A DNA stretch of 64,000 bases from Escherichia coli 042 (lineage in GTDB: Bacteria > Pseudomonadota > Gammaproteobacteria > Enterobacterales > Enterobacteriaceae): NCBI RefSeq assembly GCF_000027125.1, contig NC_017626.1; one strand, 5' to 3'. The position numbers were made by a program, and so were the translations under genes. Of this stretch, positions 22,419 through 25,868 are shown one piece after another. The notes below the pieces were generated by a model, which saw nothing but the letters and a program-made list of their open reading frames with translations, searched no databases and had not been told where the DNA came from. The first letter of the stretch is position 1; every line of letters starts with the position of its first letter.

Positions 22419-23834
22419 TTACTGCTGGTTTTCGCGTTCAGCAATAAAAGCCAGCGCTTTGTTGATACGCTCGATACTGCGGGTCTTACCGATTGCGTGA
22501 ACAGTAACATCCAGCGCCGGAGACTGCCCCGCACCGGTTACGGCGACACGCAGCGGCATACCAACTTTACCCATACCCACTTCCAGCTCATCCGCCGTCG
22601 CCTGAATAGCGTGATGAACGTTTTCAGCGGTCCAGTCAGTAATCGCAGTCAGTTTGTCACGAACCACTTCCAGCGGCTGACGCGCTACTGGGCGCAGATG
22701 TTTTTTCGCGGCGTCGGCATCGAACTCAGCAAAATCTTCGTAGAAATAGCGGCAGCTCTGTGCCATCTCTTTCAGCGTCTTGCAGCGTTCACCCAGCAGT
22801 TTCACTAGATCAGCCAGCTGCGGGCCGTTACGGGTATCGATATTTTCCTGCTCAATGTGCCACTGTAAGTGAGTAGCAACATACTCCGGCGGCAGCGCGT
22901 TAATGTAGTGATGGTTCAGCCACAGCAGCTTGTCGGTGTTGAACGCACTGGCAGATTTGCTGACGGCATTCAGAGTGAAGTATTTGATCATCTCTTCACG
23001 AGTGAAGATTTCCTGATCGCCGTGGGACCAGCCCAGACGCACCAGATAGTTCAGCAGTGCTTCTGGCAGATAACCGTCATCACGATACTGCATTACGCTG
23101 ACCGCCCCGTGACGTTTGGACAGTTTTTTACCGTCATCGCCGTTGATCATAGAAACGTGTGCGTAAACCGGTACCGGCGCTTTCAGAGCCTTAAGAATGT
23201 TGATCTGGCGCGGTGTGTTGTTGATATGGTCTTCGCCACGGATAACGTGGGTGATTTCCATATCCCAGTCATCGACAACCACACAGAAGTTATAGGTTGG
23301 GGAACCATCGGTACGGCGAATGATCAGATCATCCAGTTCCTGGTTGCTGAACTCGATCGGACCACGGATCTGATCGTCAAAAACAACAGAACCTTCCTGC
23401 GGGTTAGCAAAACGTACAACGCACGGTTCATCATCAGCATGATGATCATGGCTGTGGCGGCAGCGACCGTCATAACGCGGCTTCTCACCTTTCGCCATTT
23501 GCTCTTCGCGCAGCGCTTCCAGGCGCTCTTTAGAACAATAGCATTTATAAGCTGTGCCCTCTTCCAGCATCTGATCGATCACCGCGTTGTAGCGATCAAA
23601 ACGTTTGGTCTGGTAGTACGGACCTTCATCCCACTCCAGGCTCAGCCAGTTCATGCCATCCATAATGGCTTCGATAGCTTCCGGCGTGGAACGCTCAAGA
23701 TCGGTGTCTTCAATACGCAGCACGAACTCACCGCCGTGGTTACGTGCAAAAAGCCAGGAGTAAAGAGCAGTACGCGCGCCGCCAACGTGCAGATAGCCTG
23801 TTGGGCTTGGCGCGAAGCGAGTTTTGATTTTCAT
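22419..23834 (-). CDS. gltX: Glutamyl-tRNA synthetase
   Basis: 471 aa with HVGG (HIGH) and KLSKR (KMSKS) motifs. Recognised as GltX. Confidence 0.97.
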
Positions 23835-24047
23835 GAAATGGCCTTACGTTTAGAAAGATGCCGACAACCGGCAAATCCTGGAAAAATTGAGTGGGCGATA
23901 TTCTATCACTCCCGCCTGATTCCTCAATGTAGTTCGGGTTGCAACCTTACGCATTATTGTTTTCGTTGACAAATTGCGCAACACGGTCTGTTTTGCGATC
24001 ATCTTGCTTAAATTTACGACGAACGAACAATTTCTTTAGAAAATGCG

Positions 24048-24075
24048 TTGACTCATTTTGAACTCTCCCTATAAT
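24048..24075 (+). promoter_or_regulatory. sigma70 promoter of the valU-valX-valY-lysV operon
   Basis: TTGACT-16 nt-TATAAT followed by a GC-rich discriminator, 17 nt upstream of mature valU. Confidence 0.75.
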
Positions 24076-24092
24076 GCGACTCCACACAGCGG

Positions 24093-24168
24093 GGGTGATT
24101 AGCTCAGCTGGGAGAGCACCTCCCTTACAAGGAGGGGGTCGGCGGTTCGATCCCGTCATCACCCACCA
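24093..24168 (+). tRNA. valU: tRNA-Val (UAC)
   Basis: GGGTGATTAGCTCAGCTGGGAGAGCACCTCCCTTACAAGGAGG...CACCCACCA, 76 nt, with anticodon TAC. Confidence 0.97.
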
Positions 24169-24212
24169 ACTACTTTATGTAGTCTCCGCCGTGTAGCAAG
24201 AAATTGAGAAGT

Positions 24213-24288
24213 GGGTGATTAGCTCAGCTGGGAGAGCACCTCCCTTACAAGGAGGGGGTCGGCGGTTCGATCCCGTCATCACCCACCA
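24213..24288 (+). tRNA. valX: tRNA-Val (UAC)
   Basis: Identical 76-nt copy. Confidence 0.97.
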
Positions 24289-24334
24289 CTTTCTCGCCAG
24301 CTAAATTTCTTGTAACAATGTGAAGTACCGAAGT

Positions 24335-24410
24335 GGGTGATTAGCTCAGCTGGGAGAGCACCTCCCTTACAAGGAGGGGGTCGGCGGTTCGATCCCGTCA
24401 TCACCCACCA
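24335..24410 (+). tRNA. valY: tRNA-Val (UAC)
   Basis: Identical 76-nt copy. Confidence 0.97.
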
Positions 24411-24414
24411 CTTC

Positions 24415-24490
24415 GGGTCGTTAGCTCAGTTGGTAGAGCAGTTGACTTTTAATCAATTGGTCGCAGGTTCGAATCCTGCACGACCCACCA
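24415..24490 (+). tRNA. lysV: tRNA-Lys (UUU)
   Basis: GGGTCGTTAGCTCAGTTGGTAGAGCAGTTGACTTTTAATCAATTGG...CGACCCACCA, 76 nt, starting 4 nt after valY. Confidence 0.97.
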
Positions 24491-24494
24491 ATGT

Positions 24495-24521
24495 AAAAAA
24501 GCGCCCTAAAGGCGCTTTTTT
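24495..24521 (+). terminator. Terminator of the val-lys tRNA operon
   Basis: aaaaaagcgcc-ctaaa-ggcgctttttt. Confidence 0.88.
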
Positions 24522-24554
24522 GCTATATGCGGTTTGTAAGATTGATTTTTCTTC

Positions 24555-24581
24555 TCAAGTTCCTTGTTCTTCTGCCGATAT
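24555..24581 (+). promoter_or_regulatory. Candidate sigma28 (FliA) promoter
   Basis: TCAAGTTC-11 nt-GCCGATAT compared with the consensus TAAAGTTT-N11-GCCGATAA. The -35 matches 6 of 8 and the -10 matches 7 of 8, with exact spacing. It lies 28 nt upstream of the FlxA-like ATG. Confidence 0.6.
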
Positions 24582-24609
24582 TACCTCGTACAGTGACGAG
24601 GACTGAACA

Positions 24610-24951
24610 ATGGCCACTATCTCTCCAACTTCAATTCCTTCCATACAAACACAGAGTAGTAACAGGGCATCAGAAGGTAGCGATGTTGCTTCACAAATTG
24701 CGCGGATAAGTCAGCAAATCATCAAACTCACTCAACAAATTAAAGAGATTGCAGACACTAGCGGCAGTGCTGAAGACAAGCAAAAACAGGCCGAATTGAT
24801 TCAGCAGCAAATCACCCTACTGGAAACACAACTGGCGCAGTTGCAAAGACAGCAGGCAGAAAAAGCGCAGGAGAAAGAGCAGCGTTTGTCTCTGAATGCA
24901 TCCCTTCCAAATCCTGTTGAAAAAACGACTCAGATCGATATCTATATCTGA
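24610..24951 (+). CDS. FlxA-like glutamine-rich coiled-coil protein (strain-specific)
   Basis: 113-aa ORF with a GAGGA SD 7 nt upstream. It has an S/T/Q-rich N-terminus, heptad-like [13 protein letters not shown]…[28 protein letters not shown] and the C-terminal motif QIDIYI. As I recall, this resembles the FlxA family (PF14282). It is absent from this position in K-12. Confidence 0.6.
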
Positions 24952-25868
24952 TACAGCGGATCCCCTTCCCGCCCAGCCATTAGAGCACGGCCCTGGCCTC
25001 GTACCACGTCCCATAACGCTTGTGCGGCGGTGGAAAGTGAACGGTTCTTCCTGCGCACCAGCATCAACTGGCGTTCCACCACCGGCGTAATGCGCTTTAC
25101 CACCAGCGGGCTACCTTCAGGTAACGGCAGCGCCAGTGCGGGAAGAATACTAATGCCGATGCCTGCGGCTACCATCGGGAACAGCGTCGCCGGATGTCCA
25201 ATCTCCTGCACAATATTCGCCTGAATACCATTGCGCGCCAGCGCTGCGTCAATCAGCGGTCGGCTGCCTGACGCGTAATCCTGCAACACCAATTTCGCTC
25301 CCTGTAATGCCTGCCAGGGTACATAATCTTCCGCGGCCAAAGCGCTATCGCGATGGCAAAGCAAGAAGAAAGGCTCGGAAAGAATCGCTTCACATTGCAG
25401 ATCGCCCACTGGGCCTGGATCGATGACGATGCCAAAATCGACATCTCCCTGGCGAATACTTTCCATCACCCACTGCTGCGGACGATCGTGCAGGATAAAC
25501 TGAATATCTGGATAGCGGCGATGGCTTTCAGCAATGCATTGCGGAATAAGATGCGCGGAAATGGTCTGGCTGGCAGCGACCCGAACTTTTCCGCTCAGTT
25601 GTTGCCCCATACGCCCGGTATCGCGCAACGTGCTGTTAAGTTCATCCAGCAGTCGCTCAAGACGCAAAGCCAACTGCTGCCCTGCATCTGTAAGCACCAC
25701 TTCACGCGTGGTTCTGTCCAGCAGGCGAACACCAGTATGATTTTCCAGCTCCTTCACACTGTGACTTACTGCCGACTGACTCAGGCCGATACGCTCTCCT
25801 GCACGACTAAAACTTTTCTCCTGCGCTACTGTGACGAAAACCTTTAATTGTTTTAAAGAATAATTCAT
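24942..25868 (-). CDS. yfeR: LysR-family transcriptional regulator
   Basis: 308 aa with an N-terminal wHTH ([23 protein letters not shown]). Matches YfeR and is divergent from yfeH. Confidence 0.92.

Follow-up and report, generated by a model that had tools for sequence, protein, structure and literature searches.

The DNA between the tRNA gene lysV and yfeR in the window, by which we mean the whole stretch of 64,000 nucleotides that was analysed, most probably (we put it at about 0.8) contains a native chromosomal gene of the flxA family with a FliA promoter, in place of which the xap block was swapped in by homologous recombination in K-12-type strains. According to this reading, the FlxA-like gene would have occupied its site downstream of valU-lysV, tail-to-tail with yfeR, already before the divergence of the enterobacterial genera. 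As its upstream sequence suggests, it would be transcribed from a FliA promoter at 24555-24581 in late flagellar assembly, after export of FlgM. In some lineages xapR-xapB-xapA, with or without yfeN, would have entered the lysV-yfeR region, and the K-12 allele would have lost the flxA-like gene as far as the yfeR stop codon. The alleles would then have been exchanged within and between species by homologous recombination, with the tRNA operon and yfeR as arms.

The lysV-yfeR region is a common two-allele accessory locus, and its gene is already annotated; the NCBI pipeline names it 'FlxA-like family protein' in more than 1000 complete genomes. What is added here is the evidence for an ancient chromosomal gene with a predicted FliA promoter and for a recombination-driven exchange of alleles. 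In a search of the literature on the locus (xapA/yfeN/yfeR, lysV, xapR, 'FlxA-like'), no paper describing the polymorphism was found.

The FlxA-like gene between lysV and yfeR

The valU-valX-valY-lysV operon (24093..24490, plus strand) comprises three tRNA-Val(UAC) genes followed by the tRNA-Lys(UUU) gene lysV at 24415-24490 (ARAGORN, Rfam tRNA). Its bidirectional intrinsic terminator at 24493..24523 (AAAAAAGCGCC-CTAAA-GGCGCTTTTTT) acts on both strands by prediction and consists of a perfect 11-nt inverted repeat, which is common to K-12, Pseudocitrobacter and Salmonella. Its folding energy is -19.1 kcal/mol (z -5.8) for the plus strand and -16.5 kcal/mol (z -4.1) for the minus strand. The FlxA-like gene itself is an ATG-initiated ORF of 113 aa at 24610..24951 on the plus strand, as defined by the ORF list, the match to PF14282 and an alignment of orthologs. 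It is convergent with yfeR (24942..25868, minus strand), which codes for a LysR-family regulator of 308 aa (ORF list, RefSeq annotation), and the two genes overlap by 10 nt. Besides the FlxA-like gene and short frames overlapping it, the ORF list contains nothing in the lysV-yfeR interval. For the identical region of strain 118UI, the RefSeq annotation lists a 'FlxA-like family protein' (WP_000201400.1) and then yfeR.

The ends of lysV (24490) and yfeR (24942), the limits of the ORF and the length of the overlap given in the earlier note all agree with ARAGORN and the ORF list. Its observation that an integrase and a repeat of the tRNA 3' end are missing was borne out as well. No integrase is annotated by RefSeq in the identical region of strain 118UI, no mobility genes are found between lysV and yfeR in the ORF list or the 118UI annotation, and a repeat search of 24300-25100 detected no second copy of the lysV 3' end. 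An Rfam search of positions 23800-25200 for an RtT element had no match at E<=1.

A Shine-Dalgarno sequence, GAGGA (24599-24603), is located 6 nt before the start codon of the FlxA-like gene. Part of it is paired in a 5'-UTR hairpin, CCUCGU/ACGAGG, at 24584..24603 on the plus strand (-8.6 kcal/mol, z -2.4). This hairpin is restricted to the E. coli and Pseudocitrobacter alleles, and its significance is uncertain. Inside the FlxA-like ORF, a possible terminator of yfeR (24790-24805, minus strand) was considered and rejected, because its fold is not better than that of shuffled sequence (z -0.5).

As expected by the earlier note, the protein belongs to the Pfam family FlxA (PF14282), which it matches with 55.7 bits against a cut-off of 26.3 bits (E=5.9e-15; profile positions 4-82 of 101). 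BLASTP to K-12 FlxA yields 45% identity over the helical core (E=3e-13), and a C-terminal IDIY[IV] motif is common to both proteins. Asp110 and Tyr112 (D110, Y112) are invariant in 15 aligned sequences, K-12 FlxA included. No NCBIfam family scored above its cut-off for the FlxA-like protein. The FlxA family is small, with 89 clusters at E<=1e-3 among 1.84 billion representative proteins; a word-indexed protein search returned 8 relatives only, and the family was reached with an alignment as the query. Its members are found in two contexts, namely the chromosomal lysV-yfeR locus and Qin-like prophage regions beside relBE-hokD-ydfV. A tblastn search against 50,697 phage records (INPHARED) gave no match, with the restriction that low-complexity filtering may hide weak ones. 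Hence, an origin as a phage moron is disfavoured.

Judged by its conservation, the FlxA-like ORF is a real gene. Some observations could be taken to indicate a Q-rich spacer that is open by chance, or the remnant of a gene in decay: within E. coli dN/dS amounts to 0.5-0.6, the O157:H7 allele carries a D110G exchange in the conserved C-terminal motif, some alleles show a G-to-A change in the -10 element, and K-12 and Salmonella do without the gene. However, the frame is intact everywhere examined, that is, in 1306 E. coli genomes and, with 112-115 aa, in 38/38 orthologous loci from other genera. Between genera dN/dS is 0.11-0.14, conservation extends to the promoter, the spacing of the Shine-Dalgarno sequence and the start codon, and the match to Pfam is significant. 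A non-functional ORF is refuted by these conservation data, and we assign it next to no probability.

An AlphaFold2 model based on a 24-sequence alignment (mean pLDDT 65) predicts a disordered N-terminus (residues 1-21) and a helical hairpin formed by helices 22-49 and 54-97, followed by a disordered tail. A Foldseek comparison of this model with the PDB resulted in no match at E<=0.001; generic helical hairpins and CdsO (FliJ-like) were non-significant. A profile search against PDB sequences returned designed coiled coils alone, which is a composition effect.

A predicted sigma-28 promoter

The putative sigma-28 (FliA) class-3 promoter at 24555..24581 on the plus strand, TCAAGTTC-N11-GCCGATAT, agrees with the consensus TAAAGTTT-N11-GCCGATAA at 13/16 positions, where a spacer of 11 (+/-1) nt was taken as the criterion for promoters of this class. 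No other sequence in the 64 kb matches with 3 mismatches or fewer (chance expectation, 0.35), and 28 nt separate the end of the -10 element of this putative promoter from the ATG of the FlxA-like gene. A sigma-28 element is present at the corresponding position in 38/38 orthologous loci, in which the -10 element ends 26-31 nt from the start codon and the sequence of the spacer is free to vary. It was also found in 10 further loci of the family, K-12 flxA included; the promoter of the latter, located in Qin, is TAAAGATT-N11-GCCGATAG. In total, 48/48 loci match the consensus at 12/16 positions or better, and the distance from the end of the -10 element to the ATG is 23-32 nt. As a background, 22/914 windows of 140 nt reached at least 12/16 and 1/914 reached at least 13/16. 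In an alignment of 17 upstream sequences from at least 10 genera (78 nt), the mean column identity is 56%, and no columns are invariant apart from GCCGATA, one A of the -35 element and the ATG; T-AAG is nearly so.

Several E. coli alleles (ATCC 8739, O27:H7, EC38) have ACCGATAT in place of GCCGATAT, which is a G-to-A exchange in the -10 element. Both this variant and that of the window have a functional precedent, since they are matched by the proven FliA promoters of flgKL (TCAAGTCC), motAB (GCCGATAT) and ycgR (ACCGATAA) (PMC4183435). The predicted -35 element of the window resembles that of flgKL and the predicted -10 element is identical to that of motAB. In contrast to the class-3 genes flgKL, motAB, tar and ycgR, the window gene is not known to take part in flagellar structure or chemotaxis. 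For K-12 flxA, FliA dependence and dispensability for motility were described (Ide and Kutsukake 1997, cited in PMC4183435), and a FliA ChIP-seq peak was detected in vivo (PMC4183435). The published FliA ChIP-seq covers K-12, a strain without the FlxA-like gene at lysV-yfeR (PMC4183435).

From its predicted promoter, the lysV-yfeR FlxA-like gene is very likely a class-3 member of the flagellar regulon. The earlier note had stated that the protein is of no known function; the conserved, predicted FliA promoter sharpens this statement. The chromosomal FlxA-like copy is missing in motile K-12-type E. coli and in motile Salmonella. Since motile Salmonella do without it, the gene is predicted to be dispensable for motility.

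Two alleles and their probable exchange

In K-12 (L001) the order of elements is valU-valX-valY-lysV, an RtT-like repeat, xapR, a DUF1427 ORF, xapB, xapA, yfeN and yfeR. According to blastn and direct alignment, homology between the window and K-12 extends through window position 24536 (L001 7046) and resumes at 24941 (L001 11445), 1 nt outside the yfeR stop codon. Thus far the earlier note was right in that, relative to K-12, xapR-xapB-xapA-yfeN is absent and one FlxA-like ORF is found instead. The 46 nt past lysV (24491-24536), terminator included, are common to the window and K-12; the left breakpoint falls beyond the terminator of the tRNA operon, not inside a tRNA gene. The allele-specific DNA comprises 404 bp in the window (24537..24940, plus strand) versus 4398 bp in K-12, the xapR-DUF1427-xapB-xapA-yfeN block. 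With both breakpoints defined in this way, as the earlier note had proposed, blastn and direct alignment revealed no microhomology at either window/K-12 junction.

The K-12 block is flanked by a REP-like sequence after the left junction and by the yfeN terminator hairpin before the right junction. A duplication of the lysV 3' end in K-12 and EC38 is part of a 156-bp RtT-like repeat, and RefSeq annotates an RtT sRNA at the corresponding place in both strains. The repeat is found with either allele; EC38, for example, combines RtT with the FlxA-like gene.

A census was taken of 5426 complete E. coli genomes, with presence defined as at least 80% coverage of the FlxA-like segment or the xap block. 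The FlxA-like segment was found in 1306 genomes (~24%) and the xap block in 4066 (~75%), together accounting for ~99%; yfeN directly adjoins yfeR in 4073 of the 5426. In not one of these genomes were both alleles seen together, and a third allele with both genes (L047 type) was searched for in E. coli and is absent. The FlxA-like and xap alleles segregate in E. coli and appear mutually exclusive. The question whether K-12-like genomes also carry the ORF is answered in the negative, as their yfeN-yfeR junction is direct. An HMM search of six-frame ORFs revealed no remnant of the FlxA-like gene in K-12, Salmonella or several Citrobacter loci without the gene. The xap block itself occurs in two E. 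coli forms that are ~7% apart, with 2435 genomes at least 99% identical to K-12 and 1642 at 90-95%.

Carriers of the FlxA-like allele include O157:H7, BL21(DE3), HS and ATCC 8739; in practical terms, these strains lack xapABR-yfeN at lysV-yfeR. A set of human clinical isolates shares 14 kb of identical sequence with the window. K-12, BL21, HS and ATCC 8739, all of which we take to be phylogroup A, differ at this locus, with xap in K-12 and the FlxA-like gene in the other three. Consequently, the alleles are independent of the clonal frame.

For a view beyond E. coli, YfeR was used as a query against one genome per GTDB species, and the 63 loci obtained were annotated by tblastn and ARAGORN; E. 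albertii and E. fergusonii are not among these loci. The FlxA-like gene adjoins the 3' end of yfeR in 38/63 of these species-representative loci, from about 10 genera, and the commonest state is the FlxA-like gene at the yfeR 3' end and then lysV. It lies directly downstream of valU-lysV in Kluyvera, Scandinavium, Pseudocitrobacter, Pseudescherichia, Citrobacter, Leclercia, Silvania, Superficieibacter and Cedecea. Across genera the gene either abuts or overlaps yfeR tail-to-tail, and protein identity at the syntenic position ranges from 46 to 88%. Cedecea colo lacks yfeR and yfeH, but has the gene behind the tRNA operon all the same. More distant family members on further metagenomic and genomic contigs show a matching arrangement.

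The xap genes are distributed differently. They are found on the lysV side of the FlxA-like gene with yfeN in Kluyvera (L015/17/18/20) and without yfeN in Citrobacter (L034/36/46/54/56), on its yfeR side in Leclercia and Silvania (L048/49/52), and they are absent from most other genera in the scan of 63 loci. Salmonella has neither gene at the locus, only RtT-like repeats and REP-like sequence. The K-12 arrangement equals that of Kluyvera minus the FlxA-like gene, which is deleted up to the yfeR stop codon. Because of the genera-wide synteny of the one and the two different insertion points of the other, we regard the FlxA-like gene as an old resident and xap as a patchy cassette. At the family level, the FlxA-like gene is the resident and xap is incoming. 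Within Escherichia xap could be older and the FlxA-like allele re-imported, since the other species-level representatives of the genus that were retrieved (L004, L053/L062) have the xap allele.

The earlier note had interpreted the segment as an islet linked to the tRNA gene, by which the xap block was replaced. A small islet that integrated beside tRNA-Lys and displaced an ancestral xap block would account for the position directly 3' of a tRNA gene and for the GC content of 43.8%, compared with 52.7% in the whole window. The xap genes in the other Escherichia lineages L004 and L062 also fit, and the dS of 0.10 to a Pseudocitrobacter-like genome is consistent with an import into E. coli. However, the low GC content results from the Q/K/E-rich protein, there is no integrase, att repeat or mobility gene, and the left breakpoint is located after the tRNA terminator. 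The same position and orientation in about 10 genera argues for vertical residence. This interpretation did not survive the deep synteny of the FlxA-like gene and the patchy occurrence of xap; at the family level it is largely refuted, and overall we consider it unlikely.

Alternatively, the ancestor of E. coli may have possessed the order lysV-xapRBA-yfeN-flxA-like-yfeR, from which reciprocal deletions gave both alleles. This order, including yfeN, exists in the Kluyvera loci mentioned above, both genes also occur together in Citrobacter, and both E. coli alleles have their left boundary in the same region after the terminator. On the other hand, none of the 5426 E. coli genomes (0/5426) shows both genes. 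A precise loss of 4.4 kb that restores the pre-insertion sequence is improbable in itself; the left junction of the window is continuous with the xap-free loci of 'Enterobacteriaceae bacterium G50' and P. faecalis. We therefore judge reciprocal deletion to be improbable, to about the same degree as an islet. It differs from the preferred explanation in the order of events only.

The preferred explanation, residence of the FlxA-like gene and replacement by recombination, is supported by the pattern of identity along the locus. Across genera, identity amounts to 97-100% in the tRNA operon and to ~80-87% in its flanking genes. Collinearity of the K-12-type allele with Pseudocitrobacter vendiensis continues across the two junctions (4.7 kb at 87.7% nucleotide identity). 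E. coli yfeR is 87-90% identical to that of Pseudocitrobacter versus 73-75% to Citrobacter, Salmonella and Kluyvera, while the flanking genes yfeH and ligA are ~80-82% identical between E. coli and Pseudocitrobacter, Citrobacter, Salmonella and Kluyvera. The dS of the FlxA-like gene of the window is 0.10 to G50 and 0.55 to P. faecalis; its flanks are 72-92%, mostly 80-88%, identical to G50. For G50, a dS of about 0.6 would be expected, and a value so far below that of the flanks is the mark of a transfer. These values are signs of an exchange between Escherichia and Pseudocitrobacter.

Within E. coli, the yfeR 3' ends of the FlxA-like strains ATCC 8739 and EC38 are 99.2-99.5% identical to K-12, and the last 200 nt of yfeR in the window are 92-94% identical. 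Since identity to K-12 differs in this way among FlxA-like strains, the recombination end-points vary between lineages. We infer that homologous recombination is the best explanation of the swap, with the near-invariant tRNA operon as the left and yfeR as the right homology arm of the dimorphic locus. An exchange anchored in these two arms would also explain the missing integrase and att repeats.

Known systems and possible function

The closest known counterpart of the window gene is flxA in the Qin prophage of K-12, with which it shares PF14282, a length of ~110 aa, the IDIY[IV] tail and a sigma-28 promoter 23-31 nt before the ATG. In contrast, K-12 flxA is situated in a defective lambdoid prophage beside relBE-hokD-ydfV, whereas the window gene is chromosomal, syntenic and convergent with yfeR. 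PHROG 11044 is matched weakly by the window protein (1.4e-9) and strongly by K-12 FlxA (1.8e-71). The xapABR-yfeN block of K-12 fills exactly the interval of the window gene, from the lysV terminator to the yfeR stop codon, but is unrelated in content, as it encodes a LysR regulator, a nucleoside symporter, xanthosine phosphorylase and a Tsx/OmpK-type channel on 4.4 kb versus 0.4 kb.

Integrase-mediated tRNA-linked islands have in common with the locus the site immediately 3' of a tRNA gene and the replacement of content from strain to strain. Unlike them, the window locus has no integrase, att duplication or mobility genes, its breakpoint is past the operon terminator, and its content is one conserved housekeeping-type accessory gene with synteny in about 10 genera. 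The window locus cleanly illustrates integrase-free content replacement beside a tRNA operon, apparently driven by homologous recombination.

Usually, flxA is described as a curiosity of a K-12 prophage. Its chromosomal counterpart is widely conserved in the Enterobacteriaceae and always located behind a predicted sigma-28 promoter. Therefore, the FlxA family looks like a genuine part of the flagellar regulon that has remained unstudied. This regulon was mapped in K-12, which happens to be without the chromosomal copy.

As to function, we tentatively propose that members of the FlxA family may be late substrates of flagellar type III export or FlgM-like cargo that senses export, the lysV-yfeR gene being the ancestral form and the prophage flxA a captured one; we hold this to be a possible but rather doubtful assignment. 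In K-12 (DH5alpha), FlxA rose in the culture exoproteome together with FlgK, FlgL, FliD, FliC, FlgM and FlgE, in a fraction that contained cytoplasmic proteins as well (PMC6391000). At 42 C, with inefficient flagellar export of FlgM, FlxA protein was increased and its mRNA decreased (PMC6551532). Less likely than a role in export, and ranked below it, is an antisense brake on yfeR exerted by FliA-driven transcription across the 10-nt overlap. Like the exoproteome and 42 C observations, the universal class-3 promoter and a disordered N-terminus that precedes a helical hairpin are weak hints of export.

Divergence of yfeR and possible exchange between genera

The E. coli yfeR gene (window 24942–25868, minus strand) was compared with loci L005, L006 and L051, among others. 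It shares 87–90% nucleotide identity with yfeR from Pseudocitrobacter and only 73–75% with yfeR from Citrobacter, Salmonella and Kluyvera. The flanking genes yfeH and ligA are about 80–82% identical to their counterparts in Pseudocitrobacter, Citrobacter, Salmonella and Kluyvera alike. These identities suggest that the lysV-yfeR segment was transferred between genera. For the FlxA-like gene of the window (24610–24951, plus strand), dS is 0.10 in the comparison with 'Enterobacteriaceae bacterium G50'. A predicted hairpin (CCUCGU/ACGAGG; window 24584–24603, -8.6 kcal/mol, z -2.4) is located in the 5'-UTR of this gene, and part of the Shine-Dalgarno sequence is paired within the predicted fold. 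Alleles from E. coli and Pseudocitrobacter have the hairpin, whereas it is not evident in those of other genera.

Chromosomal and prophage members of the FlxA-like family

In Cedecea colo (L071 3713–8691) a FlxA-like gene is located between the gltX-tRNA region and ypeB-ligA, while yfeR and yfeH are missing. Therefore, the FlxA-like gene has been linked to the tRNA operon for longer, or more stably, than to yfeR. The prophage flxA copies, located in Qin-like prophage regions (L070 10411–10743, and L075–L077), are always adjoined by relBE-hokD-ydfV and retain the sigma-28 promoter. Thus, K-12 is missing the chromosomal family member, yet possesses a prophage flxA copy.

Unusual alleles and doubtful records

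In E. coli O157:H7 F8798 (L067 720–1661) the annotation lists yfeR as a pseudogene that contains an internal stop. The FlxA-like protein of the same strain carries a D110G exchange within the C-terminal IDIY motif, which is otherwise invariant.

The xap block (K-12 L001 7047–11444) occurs in two sequence forms in E. coli genomes, which are about 7% apart. One form is at least 99% identical to K-12 and was found in 2435 genomes; the other, with 90–95% identity, was found in 1642 genomes, e.g. LF82. The distance between the two forms is probably larger than the typical divergence of the E. coli core genome. A further divergent xap block, with 79–91% protein identity to K-12, is present in a record labelled E. 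coli SCPM-O-B-8794 (JAATUR010000016.1; L004 10969–17551), where an additional xapB-like paralogue (61%) lies between yfeN and xapA. Since the flanks of this locus are only 91–93% identical to the window, the record probably represents another Escherichia species.

A record labelled Enterobacter hormaechei B17-3 (CP169086.1; L047 10001–14700) combines a divergent yfeR (79.5%), a FlxA-like gene with 48% identity and xapA-xapB-xapR in a single locus, flanked by gltX, yfeH and ligA with 98–99% identity to E. coli. This arrangement was not found among 5426 E. coli genomes. Possible explanations are a mislabelled record, a chimeric record or a rare third allele.

Two records carry non-enterobacterial labels. 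Chryseobacterium sp. 18061 shows a typical enterobacterial ligA-yfeH-yfeR-FlxA-like-lysV arrangement, and Brevibacterium sp. UMB10442 is represented by a 330-bp contig with an enterobacterial yfeR fragment. In both cases contamination or mislabelling is the likely source of the enterobacterial sequence.

RtT-like repeat and tRNA genes at lysV

A 156-bp RtT-like repeat, which duplicates the lysV 3' end and the terminator, was found in K-12 (L001 6875–7000), strain EC38 (L003 2031–2156) and Salmonella diarizonae (L040), and is absent from window 24491–24536. Zero, one or two copies of this repeat follow lysV, independently of the downstream allele.

The content of the tRNA array differs between strains with an identical FlxA-like islet. 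The order of the tRNA genes is Val-Lys-Val-Lys in strain 118UI (L002 2638–3000), compared with Val-Val-Val-Lys in the window (24093–24490).
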